Assembly (NCBI GenBank): GCA_041653675.1
Contig: JBAZEY010000001.1
Span: forward strand, 64,098 to 128,097
Origin: Patescibacteria group bacterium
GTDB taxonomy: Bacteria; Patescibacteriota; Patescibacteriia; XYB2-FULL-38-15
Reading direction: 5' to 3'
DNA: 64,000 nucleotides
Part shown: in pieces, positions 16,549 to 64,000 of the stretch
How the letters are laid out: each line of letters starts with the position of its first letter
Position numbering within the stretch: the first letter of the stretch is position 1
Notes under the pieces: generated by a model
The model's database searches: none
Told to the model about the DNA's origin: nothing
What the model saw: the letters and a program-made list of their open reading frames with translations, nothing else
Made by a program: the position numbers and the translations under genes

Positions 16549-17667
16549 ATGACAATTGGTATCGACGCCTCGCGCGCCAACAAAACCGAAAAGACCGGTA
16601 CTGAGTGGTACTCTTACCATTTAATCCAGGAATTAAAAAAAATCACTGATCCAAAAGATCAGTTTATTTTGTATTCGCGGGAAAAGTTACGCGATGAACT
16701 GGGAGAATTGCCGTCAAATTGGCAGAACAGGGTGCTCGATTGGTCGCCTGGAAAATTATGGACGCAGGTGCGGTTTTCCGCTGAAATGTGGCAGAGGCCG
16801 CCGGAGCTGCTTTTTGTTCCCGCCCATATTCTCCCAACCATCCGTCCGGAAAAAGTCGTGACAACTTGCCACGATGTGGCATTTCTTCGGTTGCCGCAAG
16901 TTTACGATTGGGCATCTTTAAATTATCAGAAGCTAGCCGTGAAGTTTGCTATTCACCACGCGACAAAAATTATTGCCGTTTCAGAATTTACTAAAAACGA
17001 GTTAATTGATTTTTTTAAAATTTCTGCTGGACGAATTGCAGTCGTGCCAAATGGTTATGATAGCGAGAGTTACAAAATTATTGAAGATGGGACAGCGGTG
17101 GCAAAAGTTTTGGAAAAATATAAAATTACTGAGCCATACATTTTATACACCGGTCGGCTGGAGCTGAAAAAAAATACGCCAGGATTAATTGAGGCGTTTA
17201 AAGTTTTGAAAAAAAGTTACAATCAGCCGTTAAAATTAGTCTTGGTCGGCCAGCCAGGTTTCGGTTTTGAAAAAGTCACAAAAGCCATCGCAGAAAGCGA
17301 TTTGCAAAATGATATTATAATGCCCGGCTGGGTTGCGCGAGAAGATTTACCGTATTTGATGAGCGGCGCGCGCGCTTTTGTTTTTCCGTCATTTTATGAA
17401 GGATTTGGCATTCCGGTTTTGGAAGCTATGGCTTGCGGTACGCCAGTCGTCGCTTCGGGAATTCCCGCGCTTCGCGAAGTAGCGGGGGAGGCGGCGTATT
17501 TAGTTGATCCGGATTTTTCGGAAAATATTGCCGAAGGAATTAACCGAGTTTTAACTGATGAACATTTACGGAAAGATTTAAAAATCCGCGGACTCGCGCG
17601 GGTGAAAGATTTTAGTTGGGAGAAATGTGCGAGAGAAACGTGGAAAGTTTTAGAGGGGTTGAAATAA
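16549..17667 (+). CDS. glycosyltransferase family 4 (GT-B, group 1)
   Basis: C-terminal EGFGIPVLEAMACGTPVVAS motif. Confidence 0.7.
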   Translation: MTIGIDASRANKTEKTGTEWYSYHLIQELKKITDPKDQFILYSREKLRDELGELPSNWQNRVLDWSPGKLWTQVRFSAEMWQRPPELLFVPAHILPTIRPEKVVTTCHDVAFLRLPQVYDWASLNYQKLAVKFAIHHATKIIAVSEFTKNELIDFFKISAGRIAVVPNGYDSESYKIIEDGTAVAKVLEKYKITEPYILYTGRLELKKNTPGLIEAFKVLKKSYNQPLKLVLVGQPGFGFEKVTKAIAESDLQNDIIMPGWVAREDLPYLMSGARAFVFPSFYEGFGIPVLEAMACGTPVVASGIPALREVAGEAAYLVDPDFSENIAEGINRVLTDEHLRKDLKIRGLARVKDFSWEKCARETWKVLEGLK

Positions 17668-17705: not shown

Positions 17706-18092
17706 ATGGGGGAATTACAAAACAATCATTTTAATCTAGAAGAGCGGACAGCACAATTTGGCATAGCGATAATAAGGTTCAGTAAAACATTGAGTCAAGA
17801 TGCTGTTTCAAGGCCACTTATAAATCAGTTGGTGAGATCGGGGACTAGCGTCGGTGCGAATTATATGGAAGCCAACGGTGCCAGCTCCAGAAAAGATTTT
17901 CAGAATAAAATTTATATTTGCAAAAAAGAAGTTCAAGAAACAAAACATTGGTTGAGAATGATCGCGGAGTGTTGCCCCAGCTGTAGAGAACGGGCAAGAA
18001 TTTTATGGGCCGAAGCACAAGAGCTGACTCTAATTTTTGGAAAAATAGTTTCTACTTTAAATAGCAAAAAAAGGGACGAACAGATTTTATAA
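17706..18092 (+). CDS. four-helix-bundle protein (23S rRNA intervening-sequence protein family)
   Basis: GTSVGANYMEANGASSRKDFQNKIYICKKEVQETKHWLRMI matches the conserved core of that family. Confidence 0.7.
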   Translation: MGELQNNHFNLEERTAQFGIAIIRFSKTLSQDAVSRPLINQLVRSGTSVGANYMEANGASSRKDFQNKIYICKKEVQETKHWLRMIAECCPSCRERARILWAEAQELTLIFGKIVSTLNSKKRDEQIL

Positions 18093-37015: not shown

Positions 37016-38332
37016 ATGACACCTAAAACACAAACGGCTGTTCGCTTTAGCGATCTCGGCCTCTCGCAAAAAATGCTTTCCATTTTGGAACGGCAGAATT
37101 TTTCCGTTCCAACTCCTATTCAGCATAAATGTATTCCCTTGGCCCTGGAAGGCCGGGATATCGTGGGTATTGCCCAGACCGGCACGGGCAAGACCCTGGC
37201 TTTCGGTTTACCAATGATTGAGCGATTGGCCAAATGCCGAGGCCAGGCTTTGATTTTAATGCCGACAAGAGAACTTGCCTTGCAGGTTGACGAAGTTTTG
37301 CAAAAAATCGGACGTTCAATCGGTCTCAAAACCGCGGTTGTAATCGGAGGCGCGTCTTCGCATCAGCAATTGCAGATGTTACGCCGCAATCCGCACGTCG
37401 TGGTTTCGACTCCGGGCCGCTTGATTGACCACCTTCATCAAAAAAATTATTCGTTGCGAAACGTAAAAATTATTATTTTGGACGAAGCAGACCGCATGTT
37501 GGATATTGGTTTCGCGCCGCAGTTGAAACAGATTTTATCTGTCGCTCCGAGCGAGAGACAGACAATGCTTTTTTCGGCAACAATGCCGGGAGCAATCGCG
37601 GAGATCGCCAAGGGGCACATGAGAACGCCCATGCGAATTGAAGTGGCGCCGTCGGGCACGCCGGCCGAGAATATTGATCAAAAAATATTTATTGCCAGCA
37701 AAGAACAAAAAATGCAGTTGTTAGATAAAGTTTTAACCGATAATTCTGGAACAGCATTAATTTTTGCCCGCACAAAATTTGGCGCTAAAAAGATTGCGGC
37801 GAATTTAAATGCGTCAGGATACCGCGCGGCGGAAATTCATTCTAACCGCTCGCTAGCTCAGCGCAAGGAAGCGCTTGGCGGTTTTAAATCCGGTAAATAC
37901 CGAGTGCTTGTCGCGACAGATATTGCCGCTCGCGGCATTGATGTGAATGACATCGCCATGGTTATAAATTTTGATTTGCCTGACAATCCGGAAGATTACG
38001 TGCATCGTATCGGACGCACCGGCCGAGCCGGAAATTCCGGCCAGGCAATATCTTTTGCCTCTCCAGGGGAAACATACGATATTCGGCAGATTGAGCGGTT
38101 GATCAGACGGGCGATTCCCGTTGTCGGTTTGCCGGTTTTGCCGCCCCGCCGCGCTAATTTAGTGGAAACCGACCGGGACCAGGGAAGAGGAAACGGAAGT
38201 TATGCCCGCGGCGGAAATCATAATTTTCAAAAACGAAGCGGTGGTTTTAAATATGGCGGCGCTCCAAAACGGCGAGGAGGCGGCCGAGAGTTTGGTTCGT
38301 TCGCGCGCCGCGAGAGTTATGCTCGCATTTAA
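37016..38332 (+). CDS. DEAD-box ATP-dependent RNA helicase with Gly/Arg-rich C-terminal tail
   Basis: Q-motif, Walker A AQTGTGKT, DEAD (ILDEAD), SAT, HRIGRTGRAG. C-terminal RGG-like tail. Confidence 0.8.
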   Translation: MTPKTQTAVRFSDLGLSQKMLSILERQNFSVPTPIQHKCIPLALEGRDIVGIAQTGTGKTLAFGLPMIERLAKCRGQALILMPTRELALQVDEVLQKIGRSIGLKTAVVIGGASSHQQLQMLRRNPHVVVSTPGRLIDHLHQKNYSLRNVKIIILDEADRMLDIGFAPQLKQILSVAPSERQTMLFSATMPGAIAEIAKGHMRTPMRIEVAPSGTPAENIDQKIFIASKEQKMQLLDKVLTDNSGTALIFARTKFGAKKIAANLNASGYRAAEIHSNRSLAQRKEALGGFKSGKYRVLVATDIAARGIDVNDIAMVINFDLPDNPEDYVHRIGRTGRAGNSGQAISFASPGETYDIRQIERLIRRAIPVVGLPVLPPRRANLVETDRDQGRGNGSYARGGNHNFQKRSGGFKYGGAPKRRGGGREFGSFARRESYARI

Positions 38333-38345
38333 GTAAGATTTTTAT

Positions 38346-39587
38346 ATGCGCGTGGCAATTATCGGCGGCGGAGCAGCCGGCATGATGGCAGCCGCGACAA
38401 TCAATGAAAATAATCCGGAAGTAGAGGTTTTTTTAATTGAAAAAAACGAATCGCTTGGAAAAAAGGTTTTAATTTCCGGCGGCGGCCGCTGCAATATCAC
38501 GACTGGAATCGCGGATATAAAAATCGTGCTTAAAAATTATCCGCGGGGAGAAAAATTTTTAACTCCCGCCATGCATCGTTTTTCGCCTTCGGATGTCCGC
38601 GACTGGTTTCTCTCGCACGGCGTACCGCAGCAGTGCGGCGATGATCTTCGCGTTTTTCCAAAATCCAACGACGGCCGCGACGTGGTCGGCGTTTTTGAAA
38701 GAATTTTTTCCCGCCATCGGACTAAAATACTTTTTGGCCACGCGGTTAAAAATATTGAAAAAAATCAAAACAGGTTTATTATTAATTTTAAGGAACAGCC
38801 GCCACTTGAAGTTGATCGCGTAGTTTTGGCTCTTGGTGGCGAAGCGTACCGCCACACGGGATCAACCGGAGACGGCTATGCGCTTGCTGAATCTCTGGGA
38901 CATCACATAAGTCCGCTCGCGGCCAGTTTATATTCTTTTGTCACGAAAGAGAAATGGCCGAAAGAAATTTCCGGCCTTACCATTCCGAAATCGGCGGTTA
39001 TCGTAAAACGTGAAAAGCGTTACCGGACAGCCGGCTCGGTTTTATTCACTCATTGGGGCGTCTCCGGTCCGGCAATTTTTGCCATGTCGTCTCTTGTTGC
39101 CTTTTTAAATTTTAGTTCGGCCGAACCGTTTGATATTTTTATTGATCTTATTCCCGATGCGTCGGCGGAAAAAATTATTACTGATATGAAAAATTTTGCG
39201 CGGGAAAATCCCCAAAAAAGCTTTAAAAGCACGCTGCATCATTTTGTTCCGCGGTCGCTCGCCGAAATAATCGCGCGGGAAGCCGGGATTCCTTCTTTAA
39301 AAAAGAATGCCGAAATAAGCAACGCGGAAATAGGAAAAGTTGGGCGATGGTTTAAGTTTTTGCCGCTTCATGTTGTTGGAGGAGGGGCAGGCGAAGAATT
39401 TGTTACAGCCGGAGGAGTGGAATTATCTGAAGTTAATCCACATACCATGGAATCAAAAATTTGTCCCGGGCTTTACTTCGCCGGAGAAATCTTAAACATT
39501 GACGGTTTCACTGGCGGATTTAATCTTCAGGCCGCCTGGACTACGGGACGCGCGGCGGGGGAATCTTTGGCTCGAAATGAGAAATAA
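38346..39587 (+). CDS. NAD(P)/FAD-dependent oxidoreductase, HI0933/BaiN family
   Basis: N-terminal Rossmann VAIIGGGAAGMMAA. Family-typical ...GRCNIT... and C-terminal GEILNIDGFTGGFNLQ. Confidence 0.7.
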   Translation: MRVAIIGGGAAGMMAAATINENNPEVEVFLIEKNESLGKKVLISGGGRCNITTGIADIKIVLKNYPRGEKFLTPAMHRFSPSDVRDWFLSHGVPQQCGDDLRVFPKSNDGRDVVGVFERIFSRHRTKILFGHAVKNIEKNQNRFIINFKEQPPLEVDRVVLALGGEAYRHTGSTGDGYALAESLGHHISPLAASLYSFVTKEKWPKEISGLTIPKSAVIVKREKRYRTAGSVLFTHWGVSGPAIFAMSSLVAFLNFSSAEPFDIFIDLIPDASAEKIITDMKNFARENPQKSFKSTLHHFVPRSLAEIIAREAGIPSLKKNAEISNAEIGKVGRWFKFLPLHVVGGGAGEEFVTAGGVELSEVNPHTMESKICPGLYFAGEILNIDGFTGGFNLQAAWTTGRAAGESLARNEK

Positions 39588-55083: not shown

Positions 55084-55157
55084 AAAATTCTGGTCGGGGT
55101 GGAGGGATTCGCACCCTCGATCTCACGGTCCCGAACCGTGCGCCTTAGACTACTGGG
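55084..55157 (-). tRNA. tRNA-Pro (anticodon CGG)
   Basis: Minus-strand cloverleaf. Acceptor CGGGGTG/CACCCCG. Anticodon loop TTCGGGA. T-arm GGGTGCGAATCCCTC. CCA encoded (to 55081). Confidence 0.8.
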
Positions 55158-55290
55158 CCACACCCCGTAGTAGAACTTCGACTTGAAATAATACTACACT
55201 ATTTTTTCAATTTTTGACTATGCACCATAGCGAATCATTGACGGATATTTTTGTTCGCCGCGAGCGAACCGTCGAAGTTTCACTACGGGG
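55153..55290. mobile_element. MITE-like element copy 1 (~138 bp; TIR CCCCGTAGTAGAACTTCGAC / GTCGAAGTTTCACTACGGGG; flanking 4-5 bp direct repeat CACA(C)) inserted at the 5' end of tRNA-Pro
   Basis: Inverted repeats and duplicated CACAC flank read from the sequence. The left TIR supplies the first 5 nt of the tRNA. Confidence 0.45.
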
Positions 55291-55428
55291 CACACCCCGT
55301 TAGAAATAAAAGACCGCAAAAGGTCTTAAAATTATTATACAAGATAATCTTTTTTTCGTAAACCCTAAAAGTTAGCCCCTTCACTAAAAGCAGAAAAAGG
55401 ATTAAAATATATATACTCAAATAATTTT

Positions 55429-60523: not shown

Positions 60524-60598
60524 GGCCTCATCGTCTAGCCTGATCTAGGACGCCTCCCTCTCACGGAGGAAACTCGGGTTTAAATCCCGATGGGGCTA
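60524..60598 (+). tRNA. tRNA-Glu (anticodon CTC)
   Basis: Acceptor GGCCTCA/TGGGGCT (two G-U). D-arm GTCT...GGAC. Anticodon loop CTCTCAC. T-arm TCGGGTTTAAATCCCGA. CCA encoded. Confidence 0.75.
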
Positions 60599-60798
60599 CC
60601 AAAATAAATTAGAAATTAAATACAAACTAGCAAAAAGAAATTACCGCGAATTTATTGCGAAGGATTTAAACCAGGGAAGGGTCGGAAACCGCTAGGTTTC
60701 CGTTCGCGGAAATATTAAAACCGCAGGGTTTTAAGGAGCGAAGCGACGTTTAATTTCCCGATGGGGCTACCAAAAATAAATTAGGAATTAAATAAAAT
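60578..60798 (+). repeat. ~46-nt direct repeat of the tRNA-Glu 3' end plus 25 nt of downstream flank (TTTAAATCCCGATGGGGCTACCAAAATAAATTAGAAATTAAATA; second copy 60753-60798) flanking a ~130-bp hairpin-rich spacer
   Basis: Near-identical copies read from the sequence (3 differences). Confidence 0.6.
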
Positions 60799-62347: not shown

Positions 62348-62376
62348 TTGACAAAATTTTCATTCCATGATATAAA
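62348..62376 (+). promoter_or_regulatory. sigma70 promoter TTGACA-17-TATAAA upstream of the GC-rich noncoding unit
   Basis: Read from the sequence. Confidence 0.5.
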
Positions 62377-62384
62377 GATATGTG

Positions 62385-63566
62385 CGGGCAAACTTTCGTA
62401 AATTCAATCCGGGAGGATTAAGACACCGGTAGGTGATTGCCTCTCCAACAGGCCCGCCTTGAAAGATACGAGCTACCGCTCGTTGGAAATATGACGCGGC
62501 AGATAACTGCCGTAAGCCGCTGTAGCGCAATACGGGTATGCGTTTCGGAGCAATACCCTGAAGTTGTGGAGGTTCAAATCCTCCCTAGCGGCTCTACGAA
62601 GGTTGGCGGCCGGCGGAAGATCTCAGCCGGGTACGTCAGCAGCGGCCAGCGCGCTTGGCGCGTGTGGCTTAAAAAAAAGCCCAGTGGCTAAGTCCAAGGG
62701 GACTAGAATTGGGAAGTGTGCTCTCCCGAGCCACAGGGGAGAGCGCCAAAGCTTCCGCGAGCCGAGCTCGCGTTGGCAATAAGTTGCGGTCGGTCTGAAA
62801 GCGCGAATACGAGCGTGGTGTCGGGTTTCCCCCGATGGCTCTGGGCGCTTGCCGGCCGCGACCTGCGCTGTTCCAAAGCGGCTGCCAGAATGCGGTCGTT
62901 GAACGCTCGCCGCCAGAATGCGGTGGGCGGAATGGCGCAGATCTTTGCTCCCCGTGGTTGCCTGGATGGTGGTCTGGGCATGGGGCATTAAGGTTTCCCG
63001 ACGCCACTTGGGAAATCAGGAGGAACCCTGCTCGTCGTTATCCGCCTTAGGCGGACTGCGGCGGGTATAAAAATCTCGCGGGTGCCATCACACACTGCGA
63101 GATGGGGGCGGCACAATCGGACTCGGTGGGGTGGATCCTCCTGAGGAGGAGTTCCAGCCGAGATCGGTTCCGGGCCAAGGGAGGCCTGCTGTGTCGCTTT
63201 CTCTTAATCACGACCCATCGGGTTTGTCGGGCTTGCTCGGCAGCACGGTGGGTTGGGGCCCGGCGGTTGTCCAGGTGGTTCTGGGCAGGGCTTTAAAGGA
63301 CGCTCTCCGCCGCTATAAGAGAGGTCTAGGCGTTCCTGTCGTTCCGCAAGGGGCGAATCCCGATACTGAAACCACACCAGTAAAGGGACATCAGGAAGCG
63401 ACATAATCATGTTCCCCTCCCTGAGGAACACATGATTCCGGGCTATTTCCCGCCGTGGTATGCCTGCGATGTCGCAGTTTGCTCAGTACTTCCAAGTGCG
63501 GAATCCCGCGCGAGGAAGTCGCGATACTGCGCCGTGATGATTCATTCGTCACGGCGCCCTTTTTTA
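62385..63566 (+). ncRNA. candidate large structured RNA (~1.2 kb, ~58-60% GC, promoter-to-terminator, no credible ORF; family unidentified)
   Basis: Arg-rich junk ORFs in all six frames. Dense local hairpins. Embedded tRNA-like element. Ends at strong terminator GCGCCGTGA...TCACGGCGCCCTTTTTT (63529-63566). Confidence 0.3.
62515..62591 (+). pseudogene. tRNA-like element (acceptor, D-arm and canonical T-arm GGAGG-TTCAAAT-CCTCC present; anticodon arm degenerate)
   Basis: Hand fold gives 7-bp acceptor GCCGCTG/TAGCGGC, U8, A14, D-stem GCGC/GCGT, T-loop TTCAAAT. No 5-bp anticodon stem/7-nt loop. One extra base between T-stem and acceptor. Confidence 0.3.
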
Positions 63567-63579
63567 TCGATGACCTTGA

Positions 63580-63703
63580 CCCCGTAGTAGAATTTCGGAA
63601 TGTGAAACGGCGTTATGCAAACAAGCTTTGTGACAATTTAAAATTTTTTTAAAACAAATTATTTTTTCCGGCTTTGACGGAAATCCGAAATTTCACTACG
63701 GGG
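63580..63703. mobile_element. MITE-like element copy 2 (~124 bp; TIR CCCCGTAGTAGAATTTCGGA / TCCGAAATTTCACTACGGGG; flanking direct repeat TTGA(C))
   Basis: Same TIR family as 55153-55290, including the same asymmetric AG/GA positions. Internal sequence differs. Confidence 0.45.
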
Positions 63704-63732
63704 TTGACAAAATTGCTTTTCAGAGTTAGTAT
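63704..63732 (+). promoter_or_regulatory. sigma70 promoter TTGACA-17-TAGTAT for the last gene
   Basis: Read from the sequence. The -35 overlaps the MITE target duplication. Confidence 0.45.
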
Positions 63733-63777: not shown

Positions 63778-64000
63778 ATGGCTGATTCTTTAGACAAAAT
63801 AATGTATTCGTTTGTCGTGGAAGACGTCTTAAAGGGCTTTTTTATCACTGTTCCGCCGGGTTATGTTGCCTGCGTTTACGACCTTGGCAGGGGAGTCCTG
63901 AAAAAAGTTTTGCATCCCGGTTTGCATTTAAAAATTCCATTTTGGCAGAGAGCAAAATTGTTTAATACTCAAACTTTGGAATACAATATCAGCAAGGATT
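63778..64000 (+). CDS. SPFH/band-7 (stomatin/prohibitin-like) domain protein, 3' end outside window
   Basis: N-terminal FFITVPPGYVACVYDLGRGVLKKVLHPGLHLKIPFWQ resembles SPFH-domain proteins. Confidence 0.5.
   Translation, partial: MADSLDKIMYSFVVEDVLKGFFITVPPGYVACVYDLGRGVLKKVLHPGLHLKIPFWQRAKLFNTQTLEYNISKD

Follow-up and report, generated by a model that had tools for sequence, protein, structure and literature searches.

Characterized Ssn enzymes cut single-stranded DNA (ssDNA) only. As described by Chenal et al. (Nat Commun 2025, PMC11893778), Ssn is a single-domain GIY-YIG nuclease of about 94 aa that binds the NTS/SRM hairpin repeats flanking its own genes and cleaves ssDNA near these repeats. 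The authors likened the NTS-ssnA-NTS layout to an insertion sequence (IS), and drew a comparison with the REP/REPIN repeats and RAYT as well (PMC11893778). The terms "target site", "duplication", "MITE", "Patescibacteria" and "Candidatus" are absent from that paper. A survey of insertions in CPR rRNA genes has reported insertions with GIY-YIG ORFs, described as "not similar to either intron" and situated where conservation is poor, together with many short insertions that carry no ORF (PMC11270868). Beyond these two papers, literature searches returned nothing specific on CPR MITEs or GIY-YIG transposons.

The CPR family described here resembles Ssn in its ~90-aa single-domain GIY-YIG gene, bracketed by a repeat that is also dispersed in many copies through the genome, and in that the repeat of both systems is hairpin-forming and has a defined orientation. 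It differs in that the Ssn flank is a self-contained hairpin of ~30 nt, whereas each CPR flank contributes one of the two halves of an inverted repeat, 20 bp long, that pairs at long range. The CPR units are further distinguished by 4-bp target duplications, empty sites, nested insertions and MITE derivatives, none of which appears in PMC11893778, and by their hosts, the Patescibacteria, which go unmentioned there. The SRM motif HGTCWYN(0-2)YYVSBRHN(0-5)WNVSBRGN(0-2)RNCYNB was found in 0 of 49 elements (each searched with 150 bp on either side) and was likewise absent from the window, by which is meant the whole 64-kb stretch of DNA analyzed here. Plasmid records, searched for a link to a bona fide Ssn, gave only distant matches (<38% identity). 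The inverted-repeat GIY-YIG units with target duplications may represent a new variant of Ssn-type systems, and maybe a new transposon class. The CPR rRNA insertions of PMC11270868 are consistent with membership in the same GIY-YIG/MITE family.

With the classical MITEs (Neisseria Correia, ERIC, RUP), the short copies of the CPR family share a small size, terminal inverted repeats, target duplications, the lack of coding sequence, an intergenic or 5'-UTR location and a strong hairpin potential; as with Correia elements, copies are found at or beside promoter elements. Known MITEs trace to DDE-type IS families, whereas the only coding relatives of the CPR family encode a GIY-YIG nuclease, and the CPR interiors are extremely diverse between genomes while the ends are conserved. 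REP/REPIN sequences with RAYT are also dispersed hairpin repeats accompanied by a small nuclease gene flanked by the same repeats, and their structure-based recognition of an ssDNA hairpin is what we propose for the CPR family. REPIN and IS200/IS605 elements, however, produce no target duplication and rely on HUH/Y1 enzymes, in contrast to the constant 4-bp duplication and the GIY-YIG nuclease of the CPR family. The CPR arms also pair with each other and not locally, which sets them apart from both the IS200/IS605 and the REP-RAYT systems.

The insertion at tRNA-Pro(CGG) and a second copy

Copy 1 (Table 1) is almost certainly a non-autonomous transposable element (MITE) that entered the tRNA-Pro(CGG) gene with duplication of its 4-bp target, CACA. 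An earlier, sequence-only reading of this DNA had described inverted repeats of ~20 bp around an AT-rich core, flanked by a direct CACA duplication, and both parts of that description hold: the arms are complementary at 18 of 20 positions with a spacing of 88 nt, and the duplication is 4 bp long and present as a single copy in the empty sites of relatives. The range it had given, 55149-55295, does contain the element but its bounds are inexact, the start lying 14 nt inside the tRNA and the end falling on the first base of the displaced CCCCG. Both copies in the window (128 and 124 bp) have the small size of MITEs (under about 300 bp) and hold no transposase-sized ORF. Folded as single-stranded DNA, copy 1 is predicted to form a hairpin of -25 kcal/mol (z -6.5). 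The window contains the arm motif 4 times where 0.05 occurrences are expected, and 0 of 100 shuffles reach 4. Rfam has no family for the element, returning nothing other than a weak match to a plant miRNA-precursor hairpin, and no outward promoter inside the MITE was reported by a promoter scan of the window, where the best candidate by eye scores 8/12.

Table 1. Features of the two MITE copies in the window and of the genes adjoining them.
Feature	Position	Strand	Size or sequence	Remarks
MITE copy 1	55163-55290	+	128 bp	Non-coding; 20-bp inverted ends
Left inverted repeat, copy 1 (AG arm)	55163-55182		CCCCGTAGTAGAACTTCGAC
Right inverted repeat, copy 1 (GA arm)	55271-55290		GTCGAAGTTTCACTACGGGG
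Left target-site duplication, copy 1	55159-55162	+	CACA	Single CACA in L118 and L117
Right target-site duplication, copy 1	55291-55294	+	CACA	Flank from 55291 on equals the L118 empty site
Displaced original tRNA nt 1-5	55295-55299	+	CCCCG	Directly after the right CACA
tRNA-Pro(CGG)	55091-55167	-		ARAGORN; Rfam tRNA, 58.9 bits
Promoter-like site of tRNA-Pro	55334-55362	-	TTTACG-17-TATAAT	10/12; upstream of the element, directed towards the tRNA; conserved in L117-L120
MITE copy 2	63580-63703	+	124 bp	Arms 63580-63599 and 63684-63703
Left target-site duplication, copy 2	63576-63579	+	TTGA
Right TTGA of copy 2 and promoter-like site for the Band_7 gene	63704-63732	+	TTGACA-17-TAGTAT	Band_7 start at 63778

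As the sequence-only reading had proposed, the CCCCG of the element's left end supplies nucleotides 1-5 of the tRNA-Pro acceptor stem, and the ARAGORN and Rfam tRNA coordinates agree on this point. The 5' CGGGG of the tRNA is thus made of the first five bases of copy 1, the left target duplication provides its nucleotides 6-9 (TGTG), and its original nucleotides 1-9 are now found 132 bp upstream at 55291-55299, with the displaced CCCCG in the place claimed for it beyond the right duplication. Read along the tRNA strand, the element ends in CGGGG, the bases with which tRNA-Pro(CGG) begins, and these five bases, one duplication copy and the gene body again form an intact gene. The insertion is tolerated because the terminal bases of the element stand in for the first five nucleotides of the gene. 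The insertion, in an essential-type gene, offers a clear-cut example from nature of a mobile element that rebuilds its own target.

Because the promoter-like site of the tRNA lies beyond the element, copy 1 is located in the predicted leader of the pre-tRNA. In the predicted fold of a 237-nt precursor, the old, displaced CGGGGUG pairs with the 3' strand of the tRNA, and the whole MITE hairpin forms a 132-nt insert between tRNA nucleotides 9 and 10; use of the new tRNA 5' end would mean opening five G-C pairs of the MITE stem in this fold. Since tRNA-Pro is perfectly conserved while the MITE interior has drifted by 21% (window versus L120), the tRNA is presumably still functional with the MITE in place. 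The presence of an element at the 5' end of a tRNA raises the testable question of how such a pre-tRNA is matured.

Syntenic loci of relatives were fetched via the neighboring RarA/MgsA protein. In L118 (OZ246416.1, 95% protein identity) the copy 1 site is empty (...GGGCCACACCCCGTTAGAAATAAAAGACC..., also ...CTGGGCCACACCCCGTTAGAAATAAAAGACCGCAAAAGGTC...), the sequence being exactly that of the window minus the element and minus one CACA, and the site is likewise empty in L117 (97% protein identity). In L120 (92% protein identity) the same position is filled by an element with identical 20-bp ends and an interior 79% identical to that of the window copy. The 74-nt tRNA-Pro body is identical at 74 of 74 positions in the window, L117, L118 and L120, whether the site is filled or empty. 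When presence of the MITE is crossed with presence of a nearby 23-nt hairpin indel, all four combinations occur (window, L118, L120 and L117), indicating either repeated insertion at the tRNA-Pro site or precise excision.

Two other differences were observed around this gene. At about 9600-9690 in L119, a partial duplicate of the tRNA-Pro 3' half adjoins the intact tRNA-Pro gene, and the gene next to tRNA-Pro is MgtE in L117-L119 versus a P-type ATPase in the window and L120. The partial duplicate and the changed neighbor gene mark the locus as a rearrangement hotspot.

A second copy with the same terminal inverted repeats, also part of the sequence-only reading, is present upstream of the Band_7 gene with TTGA on both flanks, and the AG-versus-GA asymmetry noted for the arms is indeed common to both copies. 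The interiors of the two copies are unrelated, and the inner arm positions vary between them yet stay complementary within each copy. The right TTGA duplication of copy 2 constitutes the first four bases of the Band_7 -35 box, and L119 and L120 are empty at this site, TTGA being present just once there, in the TTGACAAAAT -35 box of the Band_7 gene. On the same TTGA target, L117 (about 17080-17210) and L118 (about 17150-17290) carry a sister element with the ends CCCCGTTAGAAGTT... and ...AACTTCTGACGGGG. The sister inverted-repeat family (CCCCGTYAGAAGTT) is present in L117 and L118, with no clear copy in the window. The occurrence in relatives of a related but different element at the same TTGA identifies the site upstream of Band_7 as a recurrent target.

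The short-copy family and its targets

CPR genomes are about 1 Mb in size and are usually thought to be poor in transposons. A scan with the arm pattern, taking one genome per species, returned at least 115 loci. Among the matches listed, single arm matches in ordinary bacteria are at chance level, and paired inverted arms occur only in Patescibacteria MAGs, the hosts being Saccharibacteria; Nealson-, Buchanan-, Uhr-, Portnoy-, Wolfe-, Kaiser-, Moran- and Andersenbacteria; Paceibacterota; and Microgenomates. These matches include about 95 short copies of 63-153 bp, in two size classes of 63-88 and 117-153 bp. Perfect 4-bp repeats flank 67 of 94 copies among the matches listed (P about 1e-91 even at p=0.02), and relaxed matching gave 99 arm pairs among them, 93 with the same AG/GA asymmetry. 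Interiors are shared within a genome and nearly all different between genomes (79 clusters among 92 copies listed), while the 20-bp ends are conserved across the phylum-level lineages of the CPR. Nested and tandem insertions are present, and up to 8 copies were counted in the sampled loci of one MAG. Unpaired arms were also seen in the CPR loci L040, L053, L101, L114 and L030, where ordinary genes adjoin and there is no partner arm; these are solo ends.

The sequence-only reading had preferred a mobile element to a coincidental palindrome, had proposed a wider search for copies and for the length of the target duplication, and had allowed that the elements might number two only, in the same place in relatives and free of duplications. 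The search beyond the window instead gave the ~95 short copies among the matches listed and a duplication length of 4 bp, perfect in the 67 of 94 cases given above, and, with the empty sites, these results bear out the mobile element. As far as the searchable literature shows, this is an undescribed and very abundant mobile-element family across the CPR.

Across 125 distinct arm pairs, the arms are 92% paired, with positions 1-20 complementary and position 21 not. A fixed non-complementary dinucleotide, A·C and G·T in every pair, occupies positions 10-11, and positions 4, 14 and 17-20 take several Watson-Crick pair types. The number of double changes is 262 versus 56 in shuffles, and the covariation score is 0.317 versus 0.04-0.065 when the pairing is slid. 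That arm positions are open to any base and yet complementary argues that end-to-end pairing, as a hairpin or a cruciform, matters.

From 95 non-redundant target sites that were rebuilt, the duplicated tetranucleotide has the consensus Y-A-T-R and the target as a whole the quasi-palindromic consensus G|YATR|C, with G enriched at -1 and C at +1. CATA/TATG accounts for 41 of the 95 sites, followed by TTGA/TCAA with 15. GGG on the left or CCC on the right is found at 17/95 sites versus 4/95 in a mirrored control, and in sequence the targets look like short palindromes or like the terminus of an element already in place (NNNN+CCCCG). This preference for element-end-like sequence would explain the site at tRNA-Pro (CACA+CCCCG). 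Family elements are often positioned exactly on host start codons, where the 4-bp duplication regenerates the ATG (L129-L208, L001-L115); in duplications that contain an ATG, 56 of 69 ATGs open an ORF of at least 60 codons, against a TATG background of 28%. TTGA insertions, for their part, sit on TTGAC(A) -35 boxes. Given these positions, at start codons and promoters, the family probably influences the expression of genes.

A second tRNA-Pro gene is also touched by the family. In Microgenomates bacterium OLB22 (L030, 122-139), a family arm extends over the first five bases of tRNA-Pro(UGG) (...TTTTACTACGGGG|TGTAGCTCAG). In the 121 nt of upstream sequence covered, no partner arm was seen. The arm probably stems from a separate insertion into a different tRNA-Pro gene at the corresponding position.

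GIY-YIG relatives and the probable mobilizing enzyme

Longer copies, of 305-313 bp, are rare (L062, L066, L006); each codes for a single, complete protein of 85-88 aa that matches Pfam GIY-YIG (PF01541, E 1e-16 to 1e-18), and GIY-YIG copies and MITEs share contigs in all three. A metagenome scan with these proteins yielded at least 572 relatives, the best 80 of which were analyzed. By strict criteria, both family arms bound 49 of the 80 best homologues, with a modal length of 310 bp, and most of the remaining homologues among the 80 have variant arms. One arm lies about 25 nt ahead of the ATG and the other follows the stop immediately, so that the unit consists of an inverted repeat, 5-7 nt, an ORF of 85-92 aa and a stop codon abutting the second inverted repeat. 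There is no room in the unit for a promoter or ribosome-binding site of its own, which suggests that the GIY-YIG ORF uses host expression signals. Perfect 4-bp duplications, mostly TATG, are present in 32 of the 49 arm-bounded units. The ORF is intact (75-105 aa) in 74 of the 80, and the catalytic Y..Y, YxG, R, H and E are conserved in at least 90%. Of the two arms, the AG arm precedes the ORF in 21 copies and follows it in 26; the asymmetry of the ends is uncoupled from the orientation of the ORF and fits no simple model. By sequence, the nearest solved structures are the UPF0213 proteins 1zg2 (E 1e-7) and 1ywl, and matches to SLX1 are weak. Other small GIY-YIG genes, in L023 and L099 (40-52% identity), are without inverted repeats, and not every small GIY-YIG gene therefore belongs to the family. 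The 64-kb window contains no GIY-YIG gene.

Because the family's only coding members encode the GIY-YIG nuclease alone, this protein is likely to be the mobilizing enzyme of the family. In the mechanism that we propose, the nuclease of the ~310-bp units would be supplied in trans to the MITEs and would probably recognize the hairpin or cruciform formed by both ends, as Ssn does ssDNA hairpins, and host repair and ligation would then complete insertion. The account as a whole, in which the tRNA-Pro MITE belongs to a Patescibacteria-only family mobilized in trans by a small GIY-YIG nuclease, is judged reasonably probable. Against the nuclease step stands the lack of similarity between the MITE interiors and the GIY-YIG ORF: the interiors were considered as deletion derivatives of the unit and gave only short, chance-level matches to the ORF.

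GIY-YIG enzymes are hydrolytic nucleases, and no GIY-YIG enzyme is known to be capable of strand transfer or joining, whereas a duplication of fixed length at targets of palindromic consensus is the classic hallmark of DDE transposases. A DDE partner with the GIY-YIG gene as its cargo is therefore a serious rival, although on present evidence we hold it to be rather unlikely. The same MITE would then be moved in trans by a DDE transposase making 4-bp staggered cuts (IS1380/piggyBac-like, IS5-like or IS701-like), the GIY-YIG gene being a passenger or selfish cargo. The 20-bp inverted repeats, the fixed 4-bp duplication and the palindromic G|YATR|C are all typical of DDE chemistry, and MITE interiors unrelated to the GIY-YIG ORF speak for the same view. 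IS1380 and piggyBac have 4-bp target duplications and ends beginning CC(C), and the precise excision known for piggyBac would fit the mixed pattern of filled and empty sites among close relatives; the CPR family departs from them in a target that is not TTAA, a coding unit of ~310 bp and the absence of a DDE gene at the loci sampled. The 115 genome, 80 metagenome and 8 viral loci examined (the 8 arm matches on viral contigs being uninformative) show no transposase, of the DDE type or another, between the arms or next to them, none of the 55 window ORFs of at least 120 aa belongs to a transposase or integrase Pfam family, and arm pairs 0.4-5 kb apart with matching 4-bp flanks enclose no transposase. 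The only candidates for a full-length IS among these pairs were rejected: L081 3311-5398 is a chance match enclosing ordinary genes, and the wide arm pairs of L013 and L088 are pairs of separate MITEs. A passenger role is also hard to reconcile with the extreme compactness of the GIY-YIG unit, with the duplications that flank this unit itself at many different sites and with the purifying selection on its ORF. A rare or extinct DDE master copy is conceivable nevertheless, because only about 250 loci were sampled. The partner suggested by the sequence-only reading, an IS630/Tc1 or IS5-like transposase, does not find support here, since the duplication is 4 bp (YATR) and not the TA of IS630/Tc1-mariner, no DDE gene with these ends was found at the loci sampled, and the relatives that were found encode GIY-YIG proteins instead.

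Two further explanations dispense with transposition of the element altogether, and both are highly improbable. The view that each copy regulates its gene, tRNA-Pro or Band_7, as a conserved palindrome or a structured leader RNA would agree with the strong hairpins of the copies (z -4.4 to -6.5), with the location of both window copies in 5' regulatory regions and with inverted repeats that are identical between the window and L120 around a diverged interior; it is contradicted by the exact empty sites in close relatives, by the ~95 copies (among the matches listed) that lie at unrelated loci with 4-bp duplications, by nested insertions and by the lack of a match to any Rfam family. The CACACCCCG direct repeat could instead be read as an attL/attR pair, or its remnant, from integrase-mediated integration at tRNA-Pro, given that tRNA genes are common integration sites, that a 9-nt direct repeat (CACA+CCCCG) brackets the insert, and that an att-like duplication exists at tRNA-Glu. 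This repeat, however, splits exactly into the 4-bp duplication of the family and the first 5 nt of its inverted repeat, and the insert is 128 bp long, holds no integrase and lies at the 5' end of the tRNA, where integrative elements usually occupy the 3' end. The same type of element also occurs at non-tRNA sites with other 4-bp repeats.

If the GIY-YIG nuclease does mobilize the family, the duplications, empty sites and MITEs described here would be direct genomic evidence for the suspected IS-like nature of Ssn, and the mechanism of transposition would be new, minimal and plainly useful as a tool. A still broader proposal, which we put forward only tentatively, is that these elements form a previously unrecognized class of DNA transposon whose sole gene encodes an Ssn-like GIY-YIG nuclease of ~87 aa. 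The nuclease would recognize the element's own ends as a hairpin or cruciform, and host repair would produce the 4-bp duplications. Such a transposon would spawn MITEs and home to start codons, -35 boxes and the 5' ends of tRNA-Pro genes, and its ~310 bp would make it smaller than any autonomous transposable element known so far. Homing of this kind, if true, would leave host function preserved by the duplication or by the element's terminal bases.

Other features of the window

Upstream of copy 2, the window contains about 1.2 kb (62350-63565, + strand) of 57-63% G+C, versus about 40% for the genome, with no ORF of more than 91 aa wholly inside. This stretch is preceded by a promoter-like TTGACA-17-TATAAA, found by eye, and ends in a strong intrinsic terminator (63529-63557) followed by a T run. 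The only Rfam match within it is a sub-threshold, tRNA-like one at 62516-62593 (27.4 bits versus a gathering score of 29). A gene-less gap between YidC and Band_7 is also present in L117-L120, where ARAGORN calls odd tRNA-like structures. The region is a candidate for a large structured non-coding RNA.

At tRNA-Glu(CTC), the last 17 nt of the gene and ~24 nt downstream (60585-60625) are repeated 171 bp further on (60756-60797), an att-like arrangement that suggests a past integration or excision. A free-standing ORF at 17706-18092 (+ strand), with no rRNA gene nearby, matches the "23S rRNA-intervening sequence protein" family (PF05635, E 3.5e-15). Finally, a 25-nt inverted repeat, 88% complementary and with its arms 157 nt apart (38328-38352 and 38510-38534), overlaps two successive ORFs, at the end of the first, which encodes a DEAD-box helicase, and at the start of the second.
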